This document shows positions 4,130-48,460 of a DNA stretch of 64,000 nucleotides, piece by piece. Source of the DNA: Haplodiscus bocki (taxonomy: Eukaryota); assembly GCA_965655095.1 (NCBI GenBank), contig OZ296651.1, forward strand, positions 67,332,001 to 67,396,000, in the 5' to 3' direction. The position numbers and the translations under genes were made by a program. The notes below the pieces were generated by a model. That model was not told the DNA's origin. It did not search any database and worked only from the letters and a program-made list of their open reading frames with translations. Within the stretch, counting starts at the first letter, position 1, and each line of letters begins with the position of its first letter.

Positions 4130-6150
4130 ATGATTCATCTTGACCGAAAGTGATTAACAAATCAGGGACTGTTCAATTTGACAACCATCTACAATATCGA
4201 CAACATTAAAACTGTCAATTAAAACCTTGATGGAAAAATTCAAAGAGTTTGAATATCTAGATATGTCTTTACTTAAAGCACTTTTTGCCAATTTCTGATT
4301 TCGGCTGAAAATTCGGATTTCATTGTAGGAAAAAATTCATGATTTAAAAAGCTGAATAGTCTTCCTTAACCATAACTGTTGGTGGCGACCTTGATGGCAA
4401 ATATGAAGCAGGTGGTGTTGAAGAAACATGAGGTTGAAGTTCCAGATATGTCAAAACTAGTAGCACTTTCTGGCAAATCTGATCTCTATGATTCCACTTC
4501 AAGGAACAAAATCAGTGATTTTCCAATCGCAGAGGTCACCACAAGAAGAAAACAGTCGATATAAGACATTGATGGAACATATCAAAAGTTATGGAGACAT
4601 GATTTCGCAAGTCGTGATATGTCAAAATTAAAGGCCTTTTCTGTATCTTTTAAACCATCAGGATTCTGACGCAAGTGACAGAACCGGTAGCTTTTAAGTG
4701 GAATGCTATCTTCGATAACGAAAACGCTTTCGATCGTGACCTTCGTGAAATAAACCAAGGCTATAGTGATGGAAAAATATGAGTTTGGTAATCGACATGT
4801 TTCAGTTTTAGAAGCGTTTATTGGCATTTTCGGACAATCAAGATCCAGAAAGACACAAATTCTTTTCTTATTTAATCGAAGAGTCCTCATGAAAAAGAAA
4901 GTTGTTGGCTGAGATCTCCATGGCACAAATAAAGGTAGATGTTTTCGAGGATTGGGAGTTTGAGTATCTATAGCTATCAGTTTTAAAAACAATTTGTTGC
5001 CAGTTTCGAAGAATCCGCATTCTGAAGCAACAAATACAATCAAAAGAATAAAAATCTATTAGTCCTATTCCTTGGAATGGTGTCTATGGAGACCTTGACG
5101 GAAGAACCGAACCAAAAACTGTTGCAGAAATATGAGTCGATATATCAATTTTACGTCGAGAATAAGAGCACCTCTTCAAATTTTCTGTCTGTTACGATTA
5201 GCACGCAAAAAACAAAGAGGATGACATTTTCATTACATACTCCGGGACATGTTGAAATCCTTCTGTTGGAAACTTGATGAAGGAAATCAAACCTAGAGTA
5301 ATTGATAATAATGATTTTGAAATTTGGGTACGTCAATTTTTATTGACATTTTTTGGCAACTTCGAACAGCCCTTGTAAAGTAGAAATGGTCGGTTGAGCC
5401 TGAAACGGAAAAATCAAGCTGAGTGTATTGCACATATTTGAGCTTCAATGTCATTATCAATGAGCTTTTTTCAAATTTCCAGACTAAAAGGATTGAGACA
5501 GGAGGAGAAAACGGTTATTTTTTCAAGGACTAGCCCAATTCAAGTAAAATGCTGCCGATTGATACGTTGATGGAAAATATCAAGTTTGTAGTTCTGGCGA
5601 AAAGTGATTCTGAAAATCGAGATTCAAAATTATGGGCCTCTGTTGGGTTCAAACGCCTGAATAAGATGGATTTTTTTTAAAGCAGAAAATCCATTGAAAG
5701 TAAAAAAATTCCTCCAAGACCTTCGAGGATGAAATCAAGCTTGTTGTTACGGACATGTTCGAGTGTGAAAGGTGCGTTATGACAGCACTAATGACATTTT
5801 TCGACATTTGCCGTCCATCAAAAATCTAATGCAAGAAACTAAACTTCGATTTGTTAATAAAACAGGCTTCCACAAGTAGAAAGCTGTCAATTGAGAGCTC
5901 TATGGAAAAAATTAAGCCTGCAGTGAAGGAGAAACATGAGTTTGAAAAGCGGAAAATGTGGAAGATATTGGCGTTTCTAGGGACAAGCAAGATTTAGATG
6001 CAGTGACCAAAACCAATGAGTTTTCAATCAAATGATGTTTCTCAAGTAGGAAGCTGTCCATTGAGGCCTAGATGGAAGAAGTTAAGCATGCAGATTTGGA
6101 GACAATTGAGTTTGAACATCAACAAAAATCGATTCTAATATCTCTTTTTG
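4130..6150 (+). repeat. Diverged ~177-bp tandem array, about 11 units
   Basis: Recurrent gaccttgatggaa.aaatcaa.cctgtagt...gaga.a.atgagtttgaa variants near 4224, 4388, 4565, 4738, 4912, 5091, 5270, 5563, 5718, 5895 and 6065, mostly 165-180 bp apart. Confidence 0.7.
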
Positions 6151-6715: not shown

Positions 6716-7530
6716 ACGGAAGTCTCAGTATACGAGAACGTCCTTTGAATTCAATTTCCATTAATGTTTCAAATGAATTTCTAAAAATTATGTTTTCCCA
6801 TCATTAAGATATATATTCTTTTCGGTAGCAATGTTATTTGTTAGGTCTCAATTTCAAACAATCGCACTTCATTTTGACTCACTTAGGCGTGTGTGTACTG
6901 TAAATGAGTAATATACATGAGCATTGTAAAGCAATTTATCGAGATTTTTTCTTGGCCCACATTTTCATGAAAAATTTCATTAAACATTGACCTTCAAATC
7001 GATAACATTTTCTCAGCAAAAGTTTATTTGATGAAAAATTCTTGGAATTATGGAAGGTATTGTCAATTATAGTTCATTACGAGGTTATTCCAACAGATTT
7101 ATACAACTAGAAGATAAAACGAGGGGGGTGTAACCCCTTTAATCGCATTGAGTCACGAGATACAACTTCTTTTGGGGTATTTAACTACTAATGAATTACT
7201 GCGTAAGACGCGGCGGCTACCTGAAAATTCTGCCGTGAAGCGTCAAAGCACTCCCAGCAAAAGTTAACTACATTTACAAAGTTTCTCACCTATTTTTCAC
7301 ATACTTCGAAGACAACAATCGAAGCCAAGATTTCCAACAAAGCCATCTGTGTTCCGCGGGAAGTTTCGTGTGGTTGGTGCCCACCAATTTTTAATTTTCT
7401 TTTTGCGAGAAGTTTCTCAACATACTCGGAGGTTTCAGATAATCAGCAAAATTATCAAGATTCGAAAAAGCAACAACATCTGAGAGGTTGTTTACGATGA
7501 CACGGAATAACAGTAGAATAGCAAGGGGGT

Positions 7531-7660
7531 TTAGAGCCACTTATGACTCTTTCCATATAAGGGCGTGCCGTTAGAGCTACTTATTGCTCCTCAATCTTAA
7601 TACGTTACCAACTCCTAGTTTAAGTTTAACTTCATGACAGCTCCAACAGTTTATCTAGTT
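7531..7660 (+). repeat. Left terminal inverted repeat of the Polinton-like element
   Basis: ttagagccacttatgactctttccatataagggcgtgccgttagagctacttattgctcctcaatcttaatacgttaccaactcctagttt...tatctagtt matches the reverse complement of 18123-18246. Confidence 0.93.
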
Positions 7661-8141
7661 TAACCCTGCGACAACTATGACAGTTGTTTGAACAAAAACA
7701 AACTCAAGTACGATTGGCATATTTTGAACGATGTCAAAGAGTTAAAAGTTTAACTTCTGTTAAATATGCAAAACTAACCTGAAAAATTTGATCCATACCA
7801 AGTTTACATTTGATATTTTCCAATGATCATAAACCAAGGGAAGCGCAAAGAATGAAAAATAATTGTTAATTTCAACTGTGAGGAGTCGAAAAAATCGACT
7901 TCCCACAGAAGAGACCAAATTGATGTTAAACCAGATCGCAGTTAGCACAGTCCAACAACCAAAGTACGTTGTTCTCGGATGACCACCAAAACAACGAGAA
8001 TGGCAATGGAACTGTGCTAGCAACAAAGTCAATTGATTTTGGAAAAAACCATAGAATGGAAAATTCAAAATTGCATAACCTGACAGGTCAACTGATAAGA
8101 GATGAGTGAAATCACTGACCATTCTACTGTGAAAATTCGCG

Positions 8142-9017
8142 ATGACAAGTGTGCTGAGAGAAGTTCCATCACAATTCCATTACTTGGTTTCCTCATCTAC
8201 TGAAGAAGGCGAATGGGAAGAGCACGAAGAGCCTCCTTTGAAAATAGTTAAGTATGCGAATGAGTTTCTGCAACCAAAACTGCCCAAAAGTTTTTGTTGC
8301 TTCCTAAAAACCCTGTTAAGCAGCACACATTGTGAATACAACATACGATGCCACAACACAGGAAATGTTTCTGAAACAGAAGATGTTTGTTGGAACTTTA
8401 CTGGAGAGCATTACCACATTTTCATCTACTTGAAAGCTTTCGTGGGAGCCGCAATCTTCATGAAGGAAAGCATCAGTGAAAATATCACAAGAGAAAAACC
8501 ACCTGTGAAAATTCGAAACACATTTGTCACGTTGTTTACAGTATCATATCCGGAGAACTGTTTAAAGAGAGAGGCAAAATATGGAGGCAACCAACTCTTC
8601 ATACATGGCGAGAGAATGAAATCGATGTTGCAAACTAAATCAACAAATGACTTGGGATGCAAACTTGAAAACGTGTGCGAATTACAGCGATCCTGTTACA
8701 CTGAGTTTGATGAGAATGAAGACGCCGAGAAAGTGTTTCATCTGCGCAGAAAATTGGCGGAGCTGCAGAATTCTAACGCAATTTTCAAAGATTGTGTGAT
8801 TGATTTTATCAATTTGCTTCAACGTGGTCTCGGGAACATCAACATTGCTCACCATAATAACGTTCTCAAAGTGCATCTTGGCTGTTCCAATGCCCAGTGC
8901 CAATGTTTTGAATGCACTGAAGCTTCACACACTGTTCTCGAGGGAATTGAGGGAAAAGATTTCAAATTTGATCCTAAATTGTTTTCTTTCATAGATGAGA
9001 ATGCTCAAAATGTGTAA
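8142..9017 (+). CDS. Intact 291-aa element ORF with HUH-like motif and C-terminal Cys cluster; function unproven
   Basis: Longest open frame in the window. Contains FTGEHYHIFIYL (H-u-H-u-u-u), downstream YPENCLKREAKY and C-terminal CSNAQCQCFEC. Confidence 0.6.
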   Translation: MTSVLREVPSQFHYLVSSSTEEGEWEEHEEPPLKIVKYANEFLQPKLPKSFCCFLKTLLSSTHCEYNIRCHNTGNVSETEDVCWNFTGEHYHIFIYLKAFVGAAIFMKESISENITREKPPVKIRNTFVTLFTVSYPENCLKREAKYGGNQLFIHGERMKSMLQTKSTNDLGCKLENVCELQRSCYTEFDENEDAEKVFHLRRKLAELQNSNAIFKDCVIDFINLLQRGLGNINIAHHNNVLKVHLGCSNAQCQCFECTEASHTVLEGIEGKDFKFDPKLFSFIDENAQNV

Positions 9018-9078
9018 CCAAGTAATTATAAATTGAAAACTAGACAAAAACAGTTGGTTTTCCGGATACGCGGTGATC

Positions 9079-9717
9079 ATGCGAAAAATAGTTGATGTAC
9101 AACAACTGAAAGACAATTTCAACCTAGTAGATTATCTTTTTCCGAAAAGTCCGAAAAATAAAAACGCTGTGCTGGCAGTTTGCTACTGTCCAGATAAAAA
9201 CGTAAACCTACATGATATAAGCGAATTCGCTCCCTATGCCGGGCTAATAGGTCCCGGCAAAAACTACACGGATCGTTCCTTGAGTTATTTTGAACTTTTC
9301 CGTATGCATGTGGTGTTTCACGACGCGTTTATATTCATGAAGAGTAATTTCGATTCAGGTTCGGGTTATGTTCACGCTGTTACAGAAAAACCGTTTTTTG
9401 TGAATAACATGCTGCTTGGAAATTTATCTAATTTAGCGTACTGGCTTTATCTGAAGTTGTTCCACGGAACACTTTACGAGCAGTTTGCATTCAAATCATT
9501 ACAAAAATTGGCGAGCTCGATGTCAGTTGCACTGGAGTTGCCTGCGTTTACCATGTCGCTACCTTTTTCCCAGAAAGTCTCGCTGAAGGCTTCTCTTTCA
9601 ACGCAAGATCCCAAAATTTTGATCGAGCGAAAAACCAATGGAATACAGTCGAATATTCGGCTGAGCTTAACTGAGCTAGCAAGACTAAACCAAACAATTC
9701 AAATCATATGCAACTAA
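9079..9717 (+). CDS. PLA2-like (parvovirus/adintovirus PLA2X-type) protein, possibly read through into a second small ORF
   Basis: PYAGLIGPGKNY...RMHVVFHDAF resembles the GPG calcium loop and HD dyad of viral PLA2. Adintoviruses are known to encode PLA2-like proteins. Confidence 0.5.
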   Translation: MRKIVDVQQLKDNFNLVDYLFPKSPKNKNAVLAVCYCPDKNVNLHDISEFAPYAGLIGPGKNYTDRSLSYFELFRMHVVFHDAFIFMKSNFDSGSGYVHAVTEKPFFVNNMLLGNLSNLAYWLYLKLFHGTLYEQFAFKSLQKLASSMSVALELPAFTMSLPFSQKVSLKASLSTQDPKILIERKTNGIQSNIRLSLTELARLNQTIQIICN

Positions 9718-9995
9718 TTAGCATTCACGAACCACTTATCACAAACGAAAGAAAAAACACTACGAGCTTGGCATCCCAAGTGACTGAGGAATCAACAATC
9801 AAGCCTGCAGCCGTAGATTTGGCAGATCACGTAAACTTGAATGATTTCATCTTCGATGCTAATGAAACAGAAAGACCTCCATTTCAGTTCAATTGCGGCT
9901 GCTGTTCGGACAAAATTGAATGTAACCGTTCCTTTACAGTACTTTTCTTTTATTATTTCATCACTGGTGCGATTGTATTCTTCTCCATTGCCTAG
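9708..9995 (+). CDS. Small element ORF with Cys cluster and C-terminal hydrophobic (TM-like) segment
   Basis: CGCCSDKIEC followed by FTVLFFYYFITGAIVFFSIA; overlaps the upstream stop in compact viral fashion. Confidence 0.35.
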   Translation: MQLISIHEPLITNERKNTTSLASQVTEESTIKPAAVDLADHVNLNDFIFDANETERPPFQFNCGCCSDKIECNRSFTVLFFYYFITGAIVFFSIA

Positions 9996-10084
9996 CCAGC
10001 TTTCGCTGAGAACAGTTCTATGCAAACTGGGATTATCGCCGTTTTGTCAACGTGCATCGGTTACTTGGTACCAAAAAGAAAACA

Positions 10085-10724
10085 ATGAATAAGCGCATTC
10101 GCACTAACCCCCATTACTGCAGTTCCTTTATAGGACCGTGCGGGAGCGGCAAAACGCAATTAGTATCGTTTATGTTGGAGAACGAAATAAAAATTTTTCA
10201 ACTATGTTTCGATAAAATTGTTTACCTACAAAATCATTACCAGAAGCAATTCGAAACCCTCTTGGTCACCTGTCTCCGTGAAAAGCATTCCATCGAGTTT
10301 CATCAGGGCCTTGTTTGGTCAGCAGTTGAAAAATGGGATGCTCGAAAACTGAGAACACTTGTGTTAATTGACGATTTGTACCGACAGCTCTGCGAAGATG
10401 ATTACTTTCTAAACTTGGTAATTGTGGGAAGACATCGAAAAATTCATTTCATTGCACTGAAGCACAATCTTTCCTCAACAACCAAAGACAATCGAAATGA
10501 GTGTTACACAGATGATTTTGTTCACGAGCCCCCGTGACGTGGAAGATAGGTTTGCTCGGCCGACAGATGGGAGATGGACAACTACTAATCGACGCATATA
10601 AAAAAGCAACACAGCCCCTCTCGGTCATTTGATCGTTGACTTTGATTCGCACACGGATGCTGAAATAAAATTCTGCTCCAACTGCTCAGGAACTGGACCA
10701 GCAGTTTTCTTTGTGTCCAAGTAA
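10085..10724 (+). pseudogene. A32/FtsK-like packaging ATPase of the Polinton, frameshifted
   Basis: Walker A IGPCGSGKT, FDKIVY, Walker B LVLIDDL and arginine finger GRHRKI. After a frameshift: ILFTSPRD...IDAYKKAT...HLIVDF. Confidence 0.9.
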
Positions 10725-10744
10725 TACCAGGAAAAACTTGACCA

Positions 10745-11077
10745 ATGAGTCAACAAGAGCTGTATTTGTTTGAATTTTGGGTGAACATAAAACCAATCGT
10801 TAGGCGTTTAAAAAAGTTTTTTTGTTCAAAATGAAAATTAAAAATTTTTCTGTAACTGTCTTTTCGACAGTGTCAGTGGGCATATTGCAACGGCTGGGGA
10901 TGTTTCCAAGTAAGAATTCGAAAGGCACAGAAGACTGATAGAACTTTTATGGAACAGGAAAGTGGGATTAATGCGAAGCGACAAATTTTGTCAGCTAGCC
11001 ATGAATGGAAACTGCTCGCTTTGATACAACCTTCGATTTCACGTCACTTAGAAATACGCCATGGCATCGAGCAGTAG
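10745..11077 (+). pseudogene. Small Polinton ORF remnant downstream of the ATPase
   Basis: Broken frame giving FCNCLFDSVSGHI...KRQILSA...LLALIQPSI; position and pattern resemble small Polinton accessory genes. Confidence 0.4.
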
Positions 11078-11739
11078 GACAAAAGAATTCATCCATATAA
11101 CACACGATGAATACTCATTGTTTGTAGCAAGCAAAATCTCAAACTACAACCACACTTTCGTGAACCCCAATCACACTAGAACTAGGAATCCGGAAACTCG
11201 TGCAAAAAAATAATCTCAAAAACTCAATCGATACTCCTCAAGATTTCCCAAAAGTATCAGAATGAGCGCAAAAGAATTTGAAAACAAGGCGCGGCAAAGC
11301 AGCAACGAGTACTGTCTCTGACGCCAAACGAATCGAGGACGCAGCGACAGCTGTGAAGTCAGAACATGTTATTTTAGAACTTTTCTCTTGCGGGTTGAGT
11401 GCCGGCAAGGTCGAGCGAGTCCCAGAAATCCTTACAAAAATCAGCAATAGTGAGCATGTTTCTAACAACAACGTTTCTGGGAGAATATGCCTAAACGACA
11501 CAGACACAGGATTGGCAGTTTTAGATTTTCTTTTCAATTTCTAAATACCTACTAAAAAGATTGACGATTTAAGCCCGGACTTGGTGAGACGGTTGCGTTT
11601 ACCAGATTATCTTCTCGCAAACCTTTTTGTTATGAAAGTGGCGTCATAAATGAAAAGTAGCTGAAACGAAGACAATGAAAACCCATTCAAATCATATCTT
11701 GGACCCAATATTGAACACGCCAAATGGCTGCGTCTATAA
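11061..11739 (+). pseudogene. Polinton ORF remnant of unknown function preceding the integrase
   Basis: MASSSRTKEF start, ILELFSCG...EILTKISNS...LAVLDFLFNF, ending KWLRL*; interrupted by stops and frameshifts. Confidence 0.45.
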
Positions 11740-12034
11740 TGAAGTAAACAACCACAACTGTCAAAATCATCCTACGGTTCGGGCGGCAGTTTTAGTTTAT
11801 CATGGTTAAACGACGAAAGAAACGCGCCAAAAATACAGTTGTGACAACTGTCAAAAACCTTTCAGAAAAGGATCTCGAAAAAAACCTTCCATTTGTTTCA
11901 ACGTTTGCGGTTGGGTTCATGACAAATGCAGTGGTTTGAAAACTGTAACCGAGTACGAGAGATATAGAGGGGAGAATTTCTTGTGTTCAAAGTGTTCAAG
12001 ATCGCGTCGGTTGGTTCCAGGACTCAAGAAACGA

Positions 12035-13032
12035 TAGCATACAGTAAGCTACATAACATATACACGTCCTGTCAAAATCCTGCCTCCTTTGGAAGTCGGA
12101 GTTCCCTAACGAAGGAGTCAAATTGCACCTTCAAACAAGTTGACGATTTCCTACGAAAAAGTGAAACCTACACAAACTTTGAACATGCTCGCTGAAACAT
12201 CACAAGACTAAAAGTTCGAAGTTACTGACACAATGAAATCTGGCCAATTTATTTGGCTGATATGCCGCAGCTCTTGGAGTCCAATCAGGGAATAACGTTT
12301 CTTTTCGTTGCAATGGATACACTCAGCCGATTCGTGAGGGTTTTTCCGTTTAAACGGAAAACAGCAGCAGCCTGTTGACAAGCTCTGATTGATGTCAATG
12401 TGGGCAATAGACGGCGTTCTAAAGTTTTGCGATCTCAGTCCTGCGGTGGATCTAGGCATGTATAACCAAGCCCGGAAAAAAATTGGGTAGAAAGGCCGGG
12501 AAATTGCACGCGAGTTTGCCAACTTTTGTCAACAATCGGGCATTCATATCCATTCGACTTGTAGTGAAACCAAATCGGTGTCTGCTGAAAAGAACAATAG
12601 ATCAATCAAAGCTCTAATTTTGAAAAATCGTCACGGAAACAACACTGAAGTGTATCATGAACAATTACAAGCATTGGTTGACATCATCAATTCTAGAATC
12701 AACCGAGTCATCAAGTTGGCGCCAAACCAGATGAAAAACTCTAACGAAACGTTTCTAGTATCCTTACAAGTTTGTAGTGCCATCAAAAACCAAAATTTAA
12801 ACTCGGACAAAACGTTCGCATTCGGCATAAAACAGATCTTTTTCTTCGTGGATATCGCATCCAATTTACTGAAGAGGTATTCCATATTGCAGCAGCGGAA
12901 ACACTGAATCCCCCCAGTTGTTCACTCAGCGATTGCAATATTCAGTTGACTCAAGGAAAATTCTACGAGAACGAGCTATTAGGATTCGAGAAAGACAACG
13001 AGCAGACCACCCAAAAAATTGCTATAAGGTGA
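12035..13032 (+). pseudogene. Polinton retroviral-type (rve) integrase
   Basis: PASFGS, LADM, VAMDTLSRF, STCSETKSVSAEKNNRSIK, NSRINR..KLAP, PKFKLGQNVRI, FTEEVFHI and GKFYENEL across several frameshifts. Confidence 0.9.
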
Positions 13033-13035
13033 AAG

Positions 13036-14025
13036 ATGAGTCAATAGCAAAGTTTCACCTTTAACTTGGTCTCTAACTCTTCCAAGTCAACGTTTCCCGA
13101 TAACACGCTCGCTAAATTCACAACCTTACTGCCACAATCCCTGGTCCTCCGCGGTACATGGGAGATTGCTTTGGTGGAGTTACCATGGCCCGGCTTCTTT
13201 GAAAACGTGACCGGTCTGTTCAGTTATCAACTTAATCAAAATGAACAAAACCGTGATAGATCAAAACAAGAAACTATTGTTGAGCGGCCGCGTTTTCGGT
13301 AACGGGATGGTTTCCGTGTATGTTTCCAGGAAACTGCTGAAACGGAACAGTTCTACGCTTGAATAAGAATTTTCAGCAGAGAAGTTTTTTGCATAACGAA
13401 AAGCCGTTACAGTTCGCTCAACTCTATCCTCCAATCCATGTGCGACAACCTCTGCAGCAGTTTTGGCTGGGATCTCAGTCAATTGCCACTGAGCTGGAAT
13501 AACTGCGAAGCATCCCAGTTACTGGACCTCAAACTCAGAACGACTTCAAATAAAGAAAAGAAAAAAATTCGACTCAAAGCCGTTTCCAAAGCTTTGAAAA
13601 ACACTCGGTTTGGAATATTTAGTTGACTGTAGTCAAACGAATGATGACGCCAAACAGCCTGAAGTAAGTCATGGTTTAGAGGTCTCGCATGACTGTGAAA
13701 ACCCAAACAAGTTGAAAGACGCGGCGAAATGAGCGTGCAAATTGGTAACTATCCTGTTGATTTAACAGCAGGATGTTACACTATGTTTGTTTACTGTGAT
13801 TTGGTTCAAAACGAAATACTCGGAGACACACAAGCAACACCACTCAGGGCCGTACCACTTGGTGACAACAAAAAACAGCGAATGTTCAGCAGAATTCAAT
13901 GGCGTCGAGTGATAGAGTCTTCAATTCATTCATTAACCATTGCTCATCGAAATGACGCAGGCGGTCTCTTTTTTTTCAGTCCAGGAAGAACAAACTTGAC
14001 GTTGTAATTTAGACTAACAAAATAA
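13036..14025 (+). pseudogene. Polinton minor capsid protein (penton)
   Basis: N-terminal LVSNSSKSTFPDNTLAKFTTLLPQSLVLRGTWEIALVEL and C-terminal MFVYCDLVQNEILGDTQATPLRAVP...GRTNLTL. Confidence 0.85.
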
Positions 14026-14176
14026 ATTCCAGCGCAACAGACCAAGATTTTTGCTTTCATTGTGTTTGTTGTAGTCTTCCTTCTTAGCTACAGCGTGCTT
14101 TTTTCTAAACTTCGCTAATTTCCTCAATCTCTAAAATGGAAGTTAGATGAAGCAGTCGTGCTCCTTGTAGGCAGCT

Positions 14177-14204
14177 TCCATCCATCCATCCATCCATCCA
14201 TCCA
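14177..14204 (+). repeat. (TCCA)7 microsatellite
   Basis: Seen directly. Confidence 0.95.
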
Positions 14205-14322
14205 ACTAACAGAAACATTTGTCCGTTCATAATCTGTAACAAGAGCCCGTCGCAGAACAGCATCTTCTCTACTGTGGTCGTTGGGAAAAGAAACAAGGAG
14301 GTAAAAAGAATGAGATAGATTA

Positions 14323-14914
14323 ATGTATGCTCACTTTGCCAATCAAATCTGGCAAAAGACGGTTCGAACTCCCAATGTAGTCACTTTGAGCGGGCCTGCG
14401 CGTCAGTATGGATCTGGAGGATTGGGTGTCTTCGCCATGCGTATGAGCCGCGTGGCGATGCCTTTGGTGAAACAGTACGTGATACCTGTGGCCAAAGAAT
14501 TTTGAAAGAATTTATTATCGGCATTTGTGCCGAAATCTCAAACGCTATCTCGGGTACTAAAAGACCAAAGACTGTGCTGGGGGGGAACTTGAAAAAAGCG
14601 CTTCAAAACCATTGCTGCGACCACCTCTGCCGCCGGTTCTTCAAAAAGACTTAATGATCGCGCATATGCATAAAGAACCAATCGTAAGTGTATCTGAGAT
14701 TGTGCAACCGATTGCCACGCCGCGGCGGTTGGCGTGGGACAGAGCGGCCGGGCGATGGCCGAGCGATGGAGCCAGCAGGCAGCGGGCGGGGAGCGGGCCG
14801 TCATCTGGGTGGCGAACACGAGACAAAAAAGTGGAAGAAGTCATTGACAGGAAAAAGCTTGCTGCCAGAAGTCGGTCCGACATACTCTCTGGTGTGGCGT
14901 TCAACACCAAATGA
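14323..14914 (+). pseudogene. Small basic virion core-like protein (adenovirus pVII/pX-like)
   Basis: SGPARQYGSGGLG followed by an amphipathic segment (MPLVKQYVIPVAKEF), with an Arg/Gly-rich tail ending RSRSDILSGVAFNTK. Lies between penton and major capsid genes. Confidence 0.6.
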
Positions 14915-16313
14915 ATAACCTGATTGGCAAGCATCACATAACGAAGGAAGGAGTGATGAATACCAGCAGTAGCAACCAAAACCTCTAGTTTGGAGCCTCA
15001 AGTGAAATTGCAAATCCCGTCACCCACAGCGCTCTAGACTTTGAAAGACTGTCGGTACTGATAAGTTACGACGCAACCTTCGATCAAGAAGTCTTTCCTC
15101 ATGTATATTGCGGAGGGCCCCGATTTGATTTTTTTGTCACATCAGACACTAAAAACTGCATTGATTTGAACAGAATTTGTTTGGGATAGGACGTAAATTT
15201 ATACAGCGCGGATGTAAAAGATGCTGCAACACTAACAATTTACTTTTTGCAACAACAAGCTACACTCTTTGTTTTCACACGTTGAATTAGTTCTGAACGG
15301 CAAATTGATATCCAGTAGCAACAACAACTACCATCACGCTGCCTTTGTCGAAACAGAATTAACAACAGACCTAGTTAGCTAAAGGACAAGGACCGTTTGC
15401 CACGGCTACCGTTATCGAGGAAACAAAGAAAAAAATCCAAAAGTGAAAATTAAAAGTATGCAAAAGTTTGCTGATAATGGTACCTGCTCATTTTACCTCT
15501 ATGAAGCTCCACTTGTTGAATTTTTGGGTTGCGAGCGGTTTCTACTGCCAGGCGTGACACTTCACTTGCGCCTCTATCGATCGCCCAACATTTGCGCTTT
15601 GCAAAATTTGACCGATTTGGATGCAGGTGCAATTAAAAGTCCTGATAAAAAACCGTCCGTTGTTGTAATTGAAAAAGGGTCCCTGTTTGTAAACAAAATT
15701 GTCTTGTCGGATACCGTGAAACTTAGCTTTGAACGGACGCTCACGAAGAGTTGTTCGGTATATCCGTACATTGAAAGTTCAACAAAAAATTTTATGATAC
15801 AATCCGGACAGAATTGCTTTGTGAAAAACATCCTTGACAGTGAGCCCATTAGTCATTTAACAATGTGCACGGTTAGGAATCGTTTTTTTTTCGCGGACCA
15901 ACGACGGCTTCAACGCCCTTCACTTTTGAAAAATTTGACCTGCAAAAGGTCGAGTTAGTGAGAGGAAACGGTTTACCAATAACGGGGACGCCATTGGATA
16001 CATCTAACGACACACGTTTGTTTTACAATACCATAACAGCTGCGGGATTCGAACGTGGCGGCAACAGCATCATTACCTTGCAAGACTATCAGGGTAACCA
16101 TTTCTATCTAGTTTTCGACCTAACATCAACAAGAGAAGCTAGCAAAAGTTTGATACTTTTCGCAAAGTGACAGGAGCAGGAATATCATTGAAATTGTTTT
16201 TCAGCTAAGCTTTACATGAGGCAGTCGAGTTATTTCCAGTTGGAGAAAGATTCAGTCAAGTTTTTGACAATTCTCGAAATATTTCAAAGAACTCGCCGTT
16301 GGCCATTAGATAA
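14911..16313 (+). pseudogene. Polinton major capsid protein (double jelly-roll)
   Basis: NNKLHSLFSHVELVLNGKLISSSNNNYHHAAFVETEL, FLLPGVTLHLRLYRS, YPYIES, GNGLPITGTP and FYLVFDLT, with several stops and frameshifts. Confidence 0.88.
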
Positions 16314-16940
16314 CTTTAGTTTAATTCAATTGGCGGACAACTGCTGTCCCAAACGTTTCAAAACAGTTATTGGTGTGGCTTCGTTTGACAACTCCTTTTC
16401 GGATCGGGACTTTGAGGAATTACTAAAAACTCCTGTGACAGCTGGCCAAAAATAAATCTATCAAATTGTAAACAGTGCAGCCCAGACAGAACGGGATGGC
16501 ATTGAGTTTGGCTGTCATACATTTTAAGTGATCCTTCAAAAAAGCATGCTCTATGGTCTAGTGCTGCAGTAAAAACGAATATACTATGGGATCCTCTCGG
16601 TGAGCCCATCAAAAGTGACAAAAAATACAAAAACGATTAGCTGCCTTTTCATCGAGACCGATCAGAGCATTTGAGATGATTTTCCTTATGCAAAACCCCA
16701 GTTCTAAGTTGTGCGGACTGTACTGTTTGTTTAAGGCCCACTACTTTTATGAAATTCACTTTGCTGAAAACGTCTCTACGTTCTTTTGTAAATGAAGGAA
16801 AAGCTTCACATCAAAAATACAATATTTCACCAAACAATCCCTTTCCAAACTAACAACTGCTTCGGAGATTGACATTGTACGTTATTTCAATTTGTATTGT
16901 AAATGTAATTTTGGATATAAGGTTTCTTATACTCAGAGTA
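16306..16940 (+). pseudogene. Adenain-family (adenoviral-type) cysteine protease
   Basis: IVNS...GWH*VWL (catalytic His), WDPLG (Asp) and QNPSSKLCGLYCLF (Gln and catalytic Cys) in the expected order. Confidence 0.85.
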
Positions 16941-18122
16941 ATTTTGATAAATAAATTTTCCTACTAATTGTCAGTGTCACTTCTATCACTATAGAGAACA
17001 AGTTTACATCTTCTATTGGCGGACGCTGAAATATCATCGTTACTAGCACTATCACGGAAATTTTCATCACCATCATCAACAATCGACTCTAACGCCTCTC
17101 ACTCAATGAAAGGACACGTATTGCTGGGTTCAACCTGTTCAGCTTCTGCGACCACTTCATCGAGACGGTCCAATTCAATGCAATGCTCATCCTTATCGAT
17201 GTCTCAGTAGGGAGGTTGCTGGAAACCAGCATCCGGAGGCGCTGAAATTCACGAATCTTTGAATTCCAGAGAAATGAAAACCAATGATGAGAAAGAGCAA
17301 TTCAATCTTTCTAACAAAAACAGTCGTGATGTTGCACGAAAGAGTGTAAAGTTGGCGGAGTTGCGCGTTGGCTTTCATCTACGTCTGTGTCACTTGAAGC
17401 ATTGTTGGAGTAGTAGGAATTTTTATTATCACTTCCATCATCGCTTTCACTGAGCAGCGGGGAAACGTCGGATTCTGAGAAACACAAAGAAAAATTTATC
17501 AAGGTTTTAGACTGTGAACGTTACCACAAAATGTGAAAAAGAGATTAACCACTGCAGCTTGACTGTCCCTCAATTTTGTAAAGGCCGTATGCGAGCGAAT
17601 AAATGCCGTCATTACCGGAAGACTGAAGTCAGCAAGTGAAAACTGCGGCCAACAAAAAACAAATAAATGAAACTCAGTGACTGTGCTTTCACATCACAAT
17701 GATCCTGCCGATTGGAGTAAGCGATTGAGATCGTCAAATCGTCCGCCATGTTCACTCGCTTGCTTCATTCATTGCGCCTGATCATAGTGACTGAAAAACG
17801 TATCATTAAAAAGAATTGAACCGATTGAAAATTTGATCTGGCGATCCGGCAGAACTGTTTGCTAGTAGAATTGATTTCAATCGGTGAATTTTTTTCAATG
17901 TTCCTCTATTTGAGCTCAATTTTATAAAATTGAGGCAAATGCGCTCTGATTTTTTTCAAATTGGTCAAATTCTTTAAATTCGTTTCGGTAAACTGGATTC
18001 CAATAAGGAATTAATTCAGAACACGATGAAGCTTGAGCATTTTCATCAGTATTGGTATATTATTCGATATTTGAACCACAGCGAAACCTTGAGTTCACTG
18101 TTTGAAATCTGTCAGAAAGTTC

Positions 18123-18246
18123 AACTAGATAAGCTGTCAAAGCTGTCATAAGGTTAAACTAGGAGTTGGTAACGTATTAAGATTGAGGAGCAATAAGTGG
18201 CTCTAACGGCACGTCCTAATATGGAAAAAGTCATGAGTGGCTCTAA
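18123..18246 (-). repeat. Right terminal inverted repeat of the Polinton-like element
   Basis: Reverse complement of 7531-7660 with few substitutions and a small indel. Confidence 0.93.
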
Positions 18247-20859
18247 TAATAAAGAGACTCATTAATCCGCTCAAGTCTGTAGAATAAACCTTCAGTATAA
18301 GTTTGCATGCTTCTCAAAAATGGAAGATCAAAAACATCAGAAAAAAATGATAGATTTTTTTTCAGAAATTGTCAAGCATTATGTTGGTGATGATTGTTTC
18401 AAAACTGAGCTAATAATTGAGAACTTTGAGACCTCTCATTTTTGATTTTTTTGACCGGAAAAATATGCAGTTTGGGTTTTTTTTACAACAAATCAACTTT
18501 TCAGAAAGTTAGACTACCGCGTAAGTTGCTTTCGCATTGAACAATTTGACTAGGTAATTCCGGGATAGGTGACTTTTAAAAACCAAAAATGAGTTAGGAC
18601 TTGATAAAAAAACTTCACTTTCCGTAACTTGAGTAATTTATACATGCAAATTGATTTATGAAAAGTTTGGAAAATTCTTAAAACTTTAAAGTTCTCTATT
18701 TTTTTCCATAAAAAAATGAAATATCCAAGTTTTCGAAGAAAATAGTTAAAAATATAGTATAAATCATTATACACAGCTCATCGCTGGAACTTTCGACGTA
18801 ATTTGACTGGGTGCATTTTTTATTGAAACTCCCCAAGAAAGAATGAGTTACCTTGATTCTGACTGAACATTGCCAGCAAAAAAAATCTGACGAACAAGTG
18901 AATGGAAACCTCTTTAAAACATTTTCCACTCACAACTCGGTGGAAATATCTGTTAACGCATGGCTACGGCTTGCCCACGGGGCTACCGAAAATTCTATTG
19001 GTTATGAGATCTTTCAGCCATACCAGTCAAAGAACAGCAACTGAAATGCAAATTGGAAGCAATATCAATTAACAGGAGAATCATAAGAGAACAATTTTTC
19101 TATTTTAGAAGCTGGTTCCAGTTTCATGTTTCATTTTCCACATGATGCGGACTCGATTCTGTAAATAAGGAGGGGCATTTAAAAAGACGCGGGACGGTGT
19201 TGAAGAAGTCTGAGCATAAAGTTACGTTGCTACCTTTTGGTATAGATAACTATGAAAATTAGGAGTCGTCTTGTGATGAGTCTGATTAGGAGTTTAAATG
19301 CTGCAATCGAAATAGCGGAGAAAACCATAGAGTTTGGTAACTTCTCTACATATAGTGTCAAAAGCTGCCGGATGCGACGGACAAACATATGACATCACTT
19401 ATAGTAACCCTTGCAGCGGGTCAATCAGACGATATTTGTCCCTATTCCAAGATGCAAAACGGCAATTACAACTTTTAAATGCAGTACTACTTAGTAGATT
19501 TTTATTAGAAAAAAGGTCGAAATTTATGTTTATGTATATAAAAAAGTTCATATAGGGTATACTAAATCCATGTAACGAAAGGAGGTATCAATGCAGAGGC
19601 GACCGTGATTACAAATAAAGTTTTGGAACGTGAACAGTAAGTTACTGGGGCTACTACAAACTTATTGAATGAAAACTCAACATCACGTCAATTCAACCAC
19701 TAGGCGCGGTGCTGGACGATTTAAAATAATGTTCAGTCAAAATATGATTCATTGACTGCTATTTGACTTGCCAAAAAAGCAGTGCAGGGAAGTAAGTCAA
19801 AAAACGGTCTTTTGACCGTTCTGTGACAGAACAAAGAAGACAACTGCTAATAATGCTATATTAGTGTGTAAAAGTGAATACGTCACAATTAGGCTTATTT
19901 GTATTGTATGATGTGAAGCGTACACTTCATTAGCCTGTGCAGTTTTATACTCAAACTATCCTTACGTGAGTTTAACACGTCCAAATCGTGTATGATCCTG
20001 CCTTGTAACTCGGGAACCACGAACAACCCCCTATGAAGAAAGGCAGGAAATGGACGGTCAAAAAGCCTACCGGTGACCTAACCAAAAAGTTTCGACTATA
20101 TTCTGTGACTGCTTTTGGCCATTATTTAAAATGGTGCTTTATACATGTGCTCTATGAAATCCTACCCAAAACGAGTGATCTCGATTGACGAAACAATCAC
20201 ATCAGACGCTAAACTACATGAACAAACCACAAGGAAGCCAATGAATCAAGAATTTGGTAACATCATGTCTTTCAGGCGATATTTTAGAAACAACAGTTAA
20301 AAGAAAAATGACGAAAGCTGTTTGACCTAGTTAAACGCGGGTCATACACGGCAAATTAACCTAACTAGGACTTTGAGCTTCAGAAAATCAATCAACGCAC
20401 TCTAACGCAACTTTTAACCGTCAAGACTGACATCTAACCATGAAAATATGCTATTCCGGCTTGAAGCATGCCTTTTCATGAATGAATATTGCAATAAAGA
20501 TAACCATATTCATATGCTAACAGTGTTTTCTTACCTTTTTTCCTAATTATGGTAAAGGTTCGAGGACGTCATGTAAAAGCAGTATACGTCCGTTGATCTT
20601 GGCTATATTTATATTTTTAGTTAAAAATGCAGTTATGATGGCATGAAATGACACACTCTGATTTGATCCAAGATTGAAGGTCACTGAAAGAGACGCAACG
20701 GTCGATAGACCCAAGGGGGAAATCTATATAAGTTCGAATGAGATCGACGACGAGCTGCTTCCAGAACTCTCTAAAGTGAGTTGGCCTTTGAAATTGTTAT
20801 TACCCTTGACTTCTTTGCAGAAACATATTTGAAGTTTTTGATTAGATTCATGGGTCGGC

Positions 20860-37190: not shown

Positions 37191-37597
37191 GTTCTCCGGC
37201 GGGTGCTTTTCTACCATATCCAGCAGCTGCCCCTAGCAGCTGATCCTTAAATCGCTCTCATCTTCTTTTCCTGCATGTGCTTGGTTGTGCCACTAGTTCT
37301 TCCAAAGACACACTACAAAAATTAGCTGTCTACTGCAACAGTTCCACCCTAACAAAAACTCATTTGCACCATTGACAACTAGTCAAATCGTAACATAGGT
37401 CACCCTTGGAAGAAGTATTCTCCCCAACAAAAACTCACTGCACATCTGCCGCCGCTTGATCTCTTTGGTGTCACACGATACTACGATCGTCTCCGTACAT
37501 GTTGCCAATGCGAATGTTTTTTTTCAACAGACTACTAACCTCAAAGATCTCCAATATCATTCCGAATGCGAGACGAAATTCTACAAAAAGAAAACAG

Positions 37598-38453
37598 TGT
37601 AACGGCTAGGCTTCACAATTTGAGGAAAAACTTAATATTTTTTTTATCAACTTGAACTACATTTTACTTCAATAGTTTAGATAACATTTAGTGATTCGTT
37701 TTTAGTCCCCTTGTCCCTTTGTTTCCAGTGCTTTGTTTCCAGTGGTACAGTGATTCACGTACCGTCAAGTACCTCCGCGCAACAAAACTCGCATTTTAAA
37801 AAAAGTCACATGACACTACAACAACACATAAAACAGATAATCCTATTATCAGGACCTACTTGTGTTACTGAATACGCACTACCTCTTTTATCAGTAAAAT
37901 GTACCGTTGTTTAAAACGTACGTACTGTTAGTTTTATTTAACTCCAACTTTTATATTCATGTCGCTCTGACATATTGCCTTTCCAGGCGCGTAATTGCAA
38001 ATACTTTGTGTTTTCATTGTTTCACTCTCAGCTCCAAAGTTTTTAGTGAATCTCGAGCAACATAACGCAATATTCGAGCCAAAAGCCACCACAACGGAGA
38101 GACGCTCAAGAAAAACACAAGAAATGAACCAAACCGAACAACGACCCAGCAATCTGTTGCCCCTGAAATTGTAGGAAGAGATTGCCAACGAAACTTCTAA
38201 CCAATAGGTAGGTTTTGTAACTGAATAATTCCACCAATAAAATTTGTATTTTCTTCTTTTCTTGTTGAGATTCTTTCTAAAATAAACCAAAAACAATATT
38301 TATTCACTTGAGATTTCCCGCTAGCAACCATCAAAAAGTAAAATCATCCACATAGTAGTTTGAGAAATTACTGAGTACCTTTTTCAATAACAGTCGTCTT
38401 CCGCATCCATAACTAATTTCTAGCGAACTGCTTTGGAGCATACGACTGTTACA
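37598..38453 (+). repeat. 3' LTR
   Basis: tgtaacggctaggct...gcatacgactgttaca, preceded by a purine tract. Confidence 0.93.
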
Positions 38454-43899: not shown

Positions 43900-46200
43900 G
43901 TGGCACGGAAATTACAACAAATAATTTTAATTGAGATTTTGAGCACATCACGTCAGCAGTTACGGGGAAACCCGGGTTGAAAAATCGAGAAGACTCCATT
44001 TTCAAAACTACTTCTTGACAATTTAAGACTACCAGAAGTCCATTGCACGGAACGGAAAGGATAGCTATCAACAATAATATTATTCCGAAGCAGGAACTTT
44101 ACGATTGAGAACTTGGTCGAAGAAATCAAGCCTGTAGTTACGGACAAGTTTGACTTTGATTGCTGAGATAAATCAAAAAAGAAAACCTTTTTTTTGGAAT
44201 TTTCTGGCTATCAAGAATCTAATGCGGGGAAAAAAACTAATGATTTGTAAATGGAATTTTCTCCACAAGTTTGAGTTTTTCGATAGATATGAAAATGAAA
44301 GACACCAAGCCTGTGGTTACGGAGAATTAGGAGTTGCAATATCAAGTTAAAACTTTACAAATTGCATCATTAGGAAAAATGGAACGTCAGCATTCCAATG
44401 CAAGGAACAAAATCAACAATATTTCCATTCAGAAGGTCTCTACAACCACAAAACTTTTGACTGAGACATGGATAGAAGAAATAAAACCTGTAGTTTGGGG
44501 TAAAATGTGGGGATGATATTTAGTAATGAGAAAAACTGTTAGAGGTATTTTTTTTGGAAATTTGGGACTTTCATTATTCAGATGCAGGGAACAAAATCGA
44601 CGGTTTTTCACCTCAATATTCATCTACAAGGGTCATGTTTTAGGTTGAGCTCTTGCTCCGACTGAAGGATACAAAATTCAAAAACGAGCGAAAATTTAAA
44701 TAAAATTAGCACTTTCCGGAGTTTTCGGACCGTCAAGATTCTGATGCAAGGAACACAAATCGACAAATGTCCCATTTGAAATATGTTTACAACTATAAAA
44801 TCTTCAATTCCGATCCTGCTTGAAAAGATGAAGCCTGTAATTCTGGAGAAATATAAGTTTGAATGTGGAGAAAAATTGAAATTAAAAGTTCTTTTCTGGA
44901 GAATTCGGCAATCAAGGTTCTGATGCAAGGTTGAAAAACATAGATTTTTCAATTGTTTACTAGTCTATCAGTGCTAAATTTTTCACTGAGAACTTGAAAG
45001 AGGATATCCAATTTGTAATGGTTGAGAAATAGACGTTAGAATATCGATTGAAATCAATTTAAGCACATATTGGAAAATTTGTTCTGTAACGAATCTGACG
45101 CAAGGATCAAAACAAAAAATTTTTTTACTCAAATCGTCTTGCGCAAAGCAAAAATTCTCGATCGAGATCTTGATTGGAGAAATCATACCTCTATTTGCTG
45201 ATAAATATGAGTTTAATGATCGGGACAATCGAATAGAATTAAAACTTTTTCGAATTTCCTTAGTATGGGTTTATGATGGAAGTATCGGTTAACTTGGTTT
45301 TTCAGCAAAATCATACTCCACACTTGCTATATTTTCAATTGGTGCTTTGATGAAAAAAGTGAAGCATATAGTTGTTGGGAAATAAGTGTTTAAAGTTCGA
45401 TAAAAATCTTTATAAATAGCAGTTTTTAAAAAGTTACGACTATCATGTTTCTGATACAGGGAACAAATTGGATACTGATCCAATGAAACATTTCATCATG
45501 AGTGGAAGGCTTCCTACTGAGATCTGGACTAGAGATCCAAACGTGGGTTGCTTGCCTAAGTGAGTTTCAAAATCAAAGATTTTCAGTACAAAGAGGGTTT
45601 TTCGGCAAAATCTCAACGTGGATATCACAGAAGGTCACGATGTGGCAGACATTTTCCCGGGAAAAAGTTTCATTTTTCCATTTGGATAACTCGGGATAGT
45701 GAAAAAAGTGCGAGACAAAAATTGGAAAAAAACTACAAACACTTGTTTTAATAATTAAACTTTAACAATCTTTTTAACGGATTGATATTTTGGAAACTTC
45801 TTTTGGTTTTTTGAACAAAAATAGAAAGTTTCTCAAATTTTTAAAAGCTACTGATTGAAAACAAATTGATTCGGTTAGACCGGAGGAGATCTTTTTTTTC
45901 TGAGAAAAAGGCCAATTACCAAACAACCTTTTTTTGTGGAAAAAACCCTAAATATTGCGGTCAAAAACTAAGAACCTGTTAATGAGTATCTGAAAAGAGG
46001 ATGAAAATATGTTCGAAAACGGGGTTCAAACCCACTACCTGTGGGCTACCTAACCGTGGTGCTTTTAGAAAATTGTGTTATGCCAGCCTCCAACGACTCT
46101 GCAGACACACGACGTCTGCTCGTCATGGGCAGCTTCAGGGAAACGAAAAAGAACCCGACTACTGAATTGAGCTCCTTCCTCTCAGAACTTTTTTCGACTT
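43900..46200 (+). repeat. ~177-bp array plus tRNA-like tail module, copy 2
   Basis: Array motifs (aaatcaagcctgtagtt, attctgatgcaaggaac) followed by ggggttcaaacccactacctgtgggctacctaaccg at 46021. Confidence 0.7.
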
Positions 46201-46289
46201 TCTTGTCACGATGGCGCAAAAATGATGGACTGAACATACAACAAATACAACAATTGATTTGAAAAAAGAAACCGTTTTTTGAGAGGAAA

Positions 46290-48460
46290 AAGTTGTCGTT
46301 GGGGATCTTGACAGAACAATTCAAGCCAACCTAAAGTCTAGAGCCAGATATTTTTCAATATATGAATCATATAGTAGTATGAAAGCATCAACTCACAACT
46401 TGATGAAAGAAATCGAAACTGTGGTTTTTGAGACGGATGAAATGGAACATCGAGATAAGTCTGAACTAAACGCACTTTTGCCACGTTTGTGCAATCAGGA
46501 CTCCAAGTCCGATGTAGAGATCAGTTATTAAGGTATTTAGAACCAAACAATCTGCTTCAAGTGTAAAGCTATGGATTAACACCCGGATGGATATGACAAT
46601 TGAATAGTTCGATTTGAAAAAGTATAAGTTTCAATATCGAGGTACATCAAGACTCTATGCACTTTTCGGCGAGTCTGATTCATCAAAATTCCACAGGTGC
46701 GTTCAAATTCAATAAATTCCTAATCAAGTTCTCTAACTCAAGTAGGATTCCTTGGAGTGAGACTTGGAAGGAAGTTATCAAGTTTTTTCTCAATGGGAGA
46801 CGCGTGGTACAAAATCAATATTTCTGTTTTAAAACATACTTTGGATTCTCGGAAGTCAAACGCAAGGAAGAAAATGGACAGTTACTGCCGCTAGTTTTTG
46901 TCTAGAGCTGAAATTTTCAGACTCCGACTTTGGTGGAAGAAATGAAAGCTGTGGTTGCAGCCAAAGATTTGTAAATGCCGAATCAAATCAAAAGTAGAAG
47001 CATAATTTGCATCTCTCGGACTATCAGGATTCGGATGCCAGAAAAAAAATCGATGATCTAACTTGTCAAACAATTTTTCTGCACAAGTTTCCAACTTTCA
47101 GCAGAGACCATGATGAAAAAACCACGCCTCTAGTTAGGGAGAAACAAGAGTGTCAATATCGATACGAAACGTTATAGCTAGCACTATCTGGAACATTGGA
47201 CTTCCAGTATTCTAACGCAAAGGGAGAAGTTGACCTTTTTCCAGCGACAACGTTTCAACAACGAAAACGCTTTCAATTAAAATTTTGATGGAAAAAATGA
47301 GGCCTATAGTTTTGGGAGACAAATTGGGCTGAGTTTGAATATCGAGAGAAGATATGAGTAATATGTTTTTAAGACATCTAGTATCAGGACTCAGATGCAG
47401 CGAACAAATATAACGGGTGTTACCTCAATACTCTTCTACAAGTGGTCTTAGTTAGAGTGAGTTCTTCATGCAAGAAGTCAATACTGCAGTGGCTCAGGAA
47501 CACAAGTTTGAATTTCGAGAGCAAGGAATAAAGATAGCACTTTCTTAATTTTTCGGACTGTCAAGATTATGATGCGAGAGACACCAGTCGACAACTCTGG
47601 CGTACAAACACCCCTACATTTCGGGTTTTTTGATTCCGACCATGATGGAAAAGGCAAAACATCTGCTTCTGGCAAATAATGATGTCGACAGTAGAGGAAA
47701 ATCAAAGAAAAATCGTTTTTATTGGAATTTTCGGTCGATCAGAATTCTGATGCAAAGGTCAAAAAGCAAGAAAAATACGTTGAATACTAGTTTACTGGTT
47801 CTGGTTTGGTGATCGAGATCTTGACGGAGGAACTCGAACCGGTAGTAGCTGATGTTTAAGAGTTTGATTACAGAGCGGAATCAAAATAAAAAGCTATTCT
47901 TCGGAGGATATGGATTATCACGAATCTTATGGATGGATAAAAAAATTGTTTCTAGAGACCTCTTTCACAAAACGAAACTTTTTTATGGAGACTTGATTGG
48001 AGAAATCCTGTTTTTAGATACCGAGACTTAGGAGTTTGGGTAACATACAGCATTATAAACTTTTTTTCGGGGTACTAAAAGAAAATTGAAATATTTTTCT
48101 AAAGTTCTTAAAACGATTTGAATAAGATCAAATTATTTCAGTTACCCGGAAAAATGATATTTTCCGAAAAAAACCCAACTTACCAAAAACGCTTATATTT
48201 TTGTCGAAAAAAACCCTAGTTTTTGCTGTTTAAAACTAAAAACCGAATAACCAGTATGTGCAAAGACGTTAAAAAATGGTCAATAGCGGGATTCGAACCC
48301 ACTACCTGTGGGCTAACTAACCGCGGTGCCCTTAGACAACCAAACAATGCCAGCTTCTAACGACTCTGCAGATAGGAAGTTTAGGCGTCATGGGCAGTTT
48401 CAGGAGAAGGAAGAATACTACTGAGTTGAACATTTTCCCTTCGGAAAGATTTTTCGACCC
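46290..48460 (+). repeat. ~177-bp array plus tRNA-like tail module, copy 3
   Basis: Same array motifs followed by gggattcgaacccactacctgtgggctaactaaccg at ~48288. Confidence 0.7.

Follow-up and report, generated by a model that had tools for sequence, protein, structure and literature searches.

A decayed Polinton copy in Haplodiscus bocki carrying a private deletion of its DNA polymerase gene

Results

Gene content and termini of the element

We analyzed a window of 64,000 nucleotides from Haplodiscus bocki (contig OZ296651.1, positions 67,332,001 to 67,396,000 of the forward strand). It contains a compact element of 10.7 kb, which is a decayed member of a Polinton/Maverick family of about 14.8 kb (Table 1). 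Terminal inverted repeats of 98 nt, 93% identical, were confirmed at 7531-7628 and 18149-18246, where the initial annotation had put the ends of the element; comparison with sister copies lengthened the two repeats and moved the left end outward by 19 nt, to 7512. The sister copies start with AGTAGTATAGG, of which the start of the window copy (AGTAG...) is a decayed version. The AGTAGT-type terminus is typical of Polintons. Among the 27 sister copies with both ends, 23 have target-site 6-mers that agree at no fewer than 5 bases, 19 of them exactly, and the window copy, with its right end clipped, matched at 5 of 6 bases. A tandem duplication of about 100 bp was frequent at the right termini of many sister copies (many right ends in L061-L120), and one copy (L104, C12:78.99M) was followed by six further terminal units with a 472-bp period.

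Table 1. Features of the element in the window, and foldback loci found elsewhere in the genome
Feature	Position	Strand	Basis or remark
Left target-site 6-mer (AATAAC)	7506..7511	.	adjoins AGTAG terminus; 5/6 match to 18248-18253
Left terminal inverted repeat	7512..7664 (right limit approximate)	+	comparison with sister copies
ORF1, 291 aa, open	8142..9017	+	H-Y-H motif; in 30/30 sister copies
ORF2, 212 aa, open	9079..9717	+	sister copies stop earlier
Packaging ATPase (A32-like), broken, 3 frames	10085..10770	+	Pox_A32 E 1.6e-4 in window, E 4e-9 in sister
Conserved ORF of unknown function, broken	11052..11806	+	sister-copy homology
Retrovirus-like integrase, Cys-rich N-terminus, broken	11855..13030	+	rve E 3e-8 in sister
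Penton (minor capsid), broken	13036..14007	+	low-confidence structure model of a relative
Basic core-like ORF, broken	14320..14905	+	label by position only; no Pfam match
Double jelly-roll major capsid gene, broken	14915..16290	+	structure model of a relative
Adenain-type cysteine protease, broken	16309..16951	+	Peptidase_C5 in sister
Broken acidic ORF of unknown function, downstream of pPolB	16967..17378	-	sister-copy homology
Last 22 codons of pPolB (relic)	17548..17613	-	tblastn with sister pPolB, 82% identity, E 3e-6
Deletion junction, single CGTCATT	17607..17613	.	two copies about 4.04 kb apart in sisters
Right terminal inverted repeat without its outer ~18 nt	18109..18247 (left limit approximate)	-	comparison with sister copies
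Likely right target-site 6-mer (AATAAA)	18248..18253	.	5/6 match to left 6-mer; register ambiguous
Foldback loci (L214-L228), outside the window	C4:89.53M, C9:20.17M, C3:4.85M, C10:1.64M, C1:14.37M, C9:44.05M, C12:10.79M, C5:79.87M

Gene identities were tested on natural sister ORFs using Pfam or on database relatives using structure models and a fold search. The initial annotation had described a full virion module, and homologues of the ATPase, integrase, penton, major capsid protein and protease were indeed found in the order it gave, but only as pseudogenes: each of these genes, and the core-like ORF, is spread over at least two frames with stops on the plus strand. The core-like protein likewise has a homologue in the expected place, while its name derives from that place. 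In a sister copy, Pox_A32 scored above the Pfam cut-off, and the protease matched Peptidase_C5 at E 4e-4, which is 0.9 bit under it. The low-confidence model of a database relative of the penton resembled the pentons of Sputnik, mavirus and adenovirus (E 3e-8), and that of a relative of the major capsid protein (pLDDT 83.6) matched the capsids of PBCV-1, an iridovirus, Sputnik and mavirus (E 2e-15). The only named organism among 93 matches to the capsid protein was the acoel Convolutriloba macropyga, at 46% identity.

Only two ORFs of more than 200 codons, ORF1 and ORF2, remain open inside the element, and a Pfam search returned no match for either. We take ORF2 to be PLA2X-like from its G-P-G ... 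H-D pattern (parvovirus-type phospholipase A2; PLA2X of adintoviruses). Domestication of both ORFs was considered and rejected: 6 of 28 sisters also keep ORF1 open and its constraint is not higher, and ORF2 gains its extra length only by reading past the family's end, 73 codons beyond the point where the sisters stop. The pN/pS of private changes was 0.48-0.93 over seven genes, with transition bias left uncorrected, and the value for ORF1 (0.65) indicated no tighter constraint than in the broken genes. Because the ratio was below 1 in all seven, part of the window branch may have been under selection. For core genes in the Mavericks of cyprinids, the cited portion of PMC8097293 gives a pN/pS of about 0.001. 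A crude listing of poxvirus-type promoter motifs, made without controls, gave no usable signal.

The window also holds a decayed LTR retrotransposon (27346-38453), whose direct repeats of about 840 bp (TG...CA) lie 10.27 kb apart and are 70-95% alike by segment; a stretch near 31950-32150 within it is, judging by motif, presumably RNase H-like. Two arrays of degenerate repeats of about 175-185 bp, of the same kind, occupy 4197-6150 and 44103-48037. They are probably decayed repeat-protein coding units, and each lies near a shared 69-bp element (6490, 46004, 48271).

Absence of the pPolB gene body and persistence of its last codons

The initial annotation had found no protein-primed DNA polymerase (pPolB) in the element. 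This was correct for the gene body: when 30 pPolB ORFs from the same genome (the longest ORF of each of 30 pPolB loci) were compared with the window, nothing in the window scored below E 0.25, and a six-frame Pfam search of the window, read through stops with X, gave no PF03175 match. The last 22 codons of the gene, though, persist on the minus strand at the right side of the element. The same Pfam model was recovered in sister ORFs at E 9e-13 and 3e-14, and pPolB genes are numerous in this genome (at least 98 matches). No helicase was matched in the window by six-frame Pfam search, and no replacement replicase lies at the junction, which is a plain deletion. The sister pPolB begins with C2H2 zinc fingers (L084:5706-7184), and Pfam detected no OTU domain in it.

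Sister copies carry a block that is missing from the window copy

For sister copies, we searched the genome with the left end, scored the best 40 of 580 candidates, and took 30 of the 39 non-self loci at 20 kb each. All 30 were collinear with the window copy at 84-92% identity, and 24 of the 27 with both ends were 14.3-15.0 kb long. In 28 of the 30, a minus-strand pPolB separates the stretches that match window positions 17613 and 17607; the other two end before that site, at window 13926 and 12321. Thus, the same terminal repeats do flank pPolB-positive elements, which was one of the checks proposed with the initial annotation.

The block missing from the window copy measured 3,828-4,064 bp (median 4,039) in the 26 measurable copies. 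It starts about 190 bp upstream of where pPolB begins and runs to 22 codons short of that gene's stop. In the sisters it is flanked by a 7-bp direct repeat, CGTCATT, of which the window copy keeps one; the left-end copy was exact in 19 of 25 sisters and the right-end copy in 18 of 28, and most of the others were one change away. The probability that random breakpoints have at least 7 bases in common is about 5e-4.

We widened the sample by searches from each side of the junction and obtained 55 other copies reaching a breakpoint. In 54 of them pPolB coding sequence lay beside the breakpoint, and the remaining one was a bare right end. This count omits a rearranged locus that holds pieces of pPolB (L149) and eleven right-side matches of about 70% identity without pPolB. 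We rejected the latter as Polintons, as they represent a dispersed repeat of about 350 bp in unrelated flanks. This repeat (L124, L135-L137, L139, L141, L143, L145, L147, L148, L150) is about 70% like a stretch upstream of the family's pPolB (window 17604-17870), a region for which there were 469 candidates.

The junction was found once among the copies scored

A DNA search spanning the junction scored the best 40 of 74 candidates, and a second one scored the best 40 of 473; in each, the window alone crossed the junction and the other 39 scored matches lay entirely on one side of the repeat. A pattern derived from the window matched itself and two loci that resemble the right side only, and a degenerate pattern with 3 mismatches allowed had a single match genome-wide, the window. 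Since such searches may miss a strongly diverged or old daughter, once here means once among those scored. A deletion shared across independent insertions, by which a non-autonomous subfamily is recognized, was absent among the scored copies.

Age and general decay of the family

The median divergence of the window copy from its sisters was 10.3% and 12.2% in two segments, compared with 6.5% and 6.9% among the sisters themselves. The trees were star-like, and the terminal branch of the window copy (0.08-0.10) was the longest in one and the second longest in the other. Ten of the 30 sisters carried private deletions of at least 40 bp (13 in all), each at a different place. One sister has lost 8.8 kb including all capsid genes and kept pPolB, and three other copies show partial loss of pPolB with other breakpoints. 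These private deletions and partial losses suggest that the loss of pPolB in the window copy is a single instance of a general process.

Foldback elements that share the terminal tip

The terminal motif of the family had 395 matches genome-wide, of which 100 were listed, and ten facing pairs (two of about 11.2 kb, the others 7.7-19 kb) were examined as candidate polymerase-less sisters. None was one: eight were foldback-type, one belonged to another Polinton family, and one was a normal pPolB-positive sister. The foldback elements are 11-18 kb long and begin with the terminal tip of the family in the window. In seven of the eight, the arms are 4-6.5 kb long and 96-99% identical; those of the eighth measure 2.2 kb and are 91% identical. 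None of the eight matched the Polinton proteins tried. One arm gave only a weak thymidine kinase match (E 0.03), and six of the eight contain a gap able to hide genes. A probe from the inner part of the foldbacks gave 315 candidates, many in facing pairs.

Three of the eight show exact 6-bp target duplications between flanks that are unrelated. In three others, the flanks lie inside the palindrome and a gap of 200 N sits at the center, which points to assembly faults; some foldbacks are likely to be such faults. Of the last two, one is free of gaps, with a center of about 0.8 kb and 105 bp of inverted flank, and one has no duplication. The outer 0.5-1 kb of the foldbacks and an inner 1.1 kb, at 73-82%, recur in a second Polinton family of 19 kb that has a related terminal tip (L229/L230, C10:16.15M). 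The ATPase, integrase, penton and capsid proteins of this second family are 27-52% identical to those of the family in the window; its polymerase region is weakly matched (47.8 bits), and C2H2 fingers are present.

We consider it possible, at somewhat less than an even chance, that the foldbacks are a polymerase-less Polinton lineage, namely snap-back-type defective genomes that arose out of a single end of a related Polinton, with a helper's pPolB and integrase copying and integrating them. If so, the foldbacks could be of more consequence than the window copy: Polintons would spawn large hairpin-like parasites, and the foldbacks would be a natural test of the terminal sequences needed by the Polinton replication and integration machinery. 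Searches of the open literature accessible to us showed no report of giant foldback Polintons, which is not proof of absence. That the window copy itself founded a polymerase-less lineage is very unlikely.

Discussion

The element in the window is very probably a decayed copy from a pPolB-bearing Polinton family of about 14.8 kb that lost a block of about 4.04 kb, likely in a single break-repair deletion after insertion. The copy would have inserted as a full element, and the block would have been lost later in one repair event joining the two 7-bp repeats; established knowledge of repair suggests microhomology-mediated end joining or replication slippage as the route. The copy is incapable of replicating or integrating alone, and no daughters were detected. 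A deletion that preceded integration would leave the same picture, and the loss is seen in one assembly.

It is improbable but conceivable that the block was deleted while a free or excised genome was replicating, and that the defective molecule was then integrated once with the polymerase and integrase of a helper. The copy retains both ends with a 5/6 target duplication, the replicase has been removed cleanly, and movement in trans is made plausible by elements in this genome that lack the tested Polinton genes and yet bear clean 6-bp duplications. Against this, no second copy appeared among those scored, and the private deletions of the sisters hit all kinds of genes, as expected from host repair after insertion.

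The initial annotation had left two readings, a natural polymerase-less lineage (a satellite, or one using another replication route) and a clean single-copy deletion. The data bear out the latter: pPolB is present in sisters that agree with this copy in termini and gene order, a remnant of the gene is still in place, and the junction occurred once among the copies scored, whereas many independent copies of about 10.7 kb without pPolB would have supported a lineage. Sisters with pPolB together with a junction of its own, or a decayed pPolB found by profile search, had been named beforehand as speaking against a lineage; such sisters, a junction seen once among those scored and a pPolB remnant recovered by tblastn were what we observed. 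A true polymerase-less subfamily, either a helper-dependent satellite or one replicating through ORF1, is accordingly highly unlikely, even though ORF1 is open in the window copy and has its H-Y-H motif, and the census covered 100 of the 395 terminal-motif matches. ORF1 occurs in every sister, including the pPolB-positive ones, and is no more constrained than the broken genes, so that replacement by ORF1 does not explain the loss; in addition, nothing at the junction replaces the replicase, and the two candidate terminus pairs of about 11.2 kb proved to be unrelated foldback elements. We give almost no credence to an assembly error that dropped the 4-kb block. The same assembly is faulty at other palindromic elements, but there is no gap or N within this element, the private divergence of 10-12% is the same on both sides of the junction, and where contigs reach chromosome scale, a repeat of 7 bp should be too short to make the assembly collapse.

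As it stands, this is an ordinary finding: a Polinton copy that is dead and has lost its polymerase in a private deletion. It matters little beyond illustrating neatly the decay of Polinton fossils, and it carries a warning: one polymerase-less copy is uninformative about a lineage until its sisters have been checked.

Polintons have pPolB and integrase by definition, as stated in the cited part of PMC5499653. The family fits this definition, with pPolB (28/30 sisters) and an rve integrase; it also has a target duplication, an ATPase and a protease, and capsid and penton are supported by the models of database relatives, the window's own copies being broken. The pPolB of the sisters is of the pfam03175 'Alpha' PolB class, as in the Polintons/Mavericks (adintoviruses with this class) of PMC8502044. 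The window copy differs from these in keeping only 22 C-terminal codons of pPolB and in having six structural or integration genes that are all broken; it is a deletion derivative, not an intact Polinton. Incomplete copies are familiar elsewhere: the cited text of PMC8097293 reports a survey in which 96% of vertebrate Maverick copies were called defective, and in C. elegans partial copies have termini and pPolB without integrase, according to 10.1101/2024.01.15.575659. The window copy is like such a vertebrate fossil, except that the host group is different and that here a junction bounded by repeats marks the site of the loss. A helicase replaces pPolB in Tlr1 and in most Polinton-like viruses (PMC5499653, in the part cited); they share with the window copy a capsid, an ATPase and, in Tlr1, an rve integrase without a working pPolB. 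In the same account they are multi-copy lineages whose SF1 helicase stands where pPolB would be, and Tlr1 lacks the protease gene, whereas the element in the window is a single copy with a protease gene and no replacement gene.
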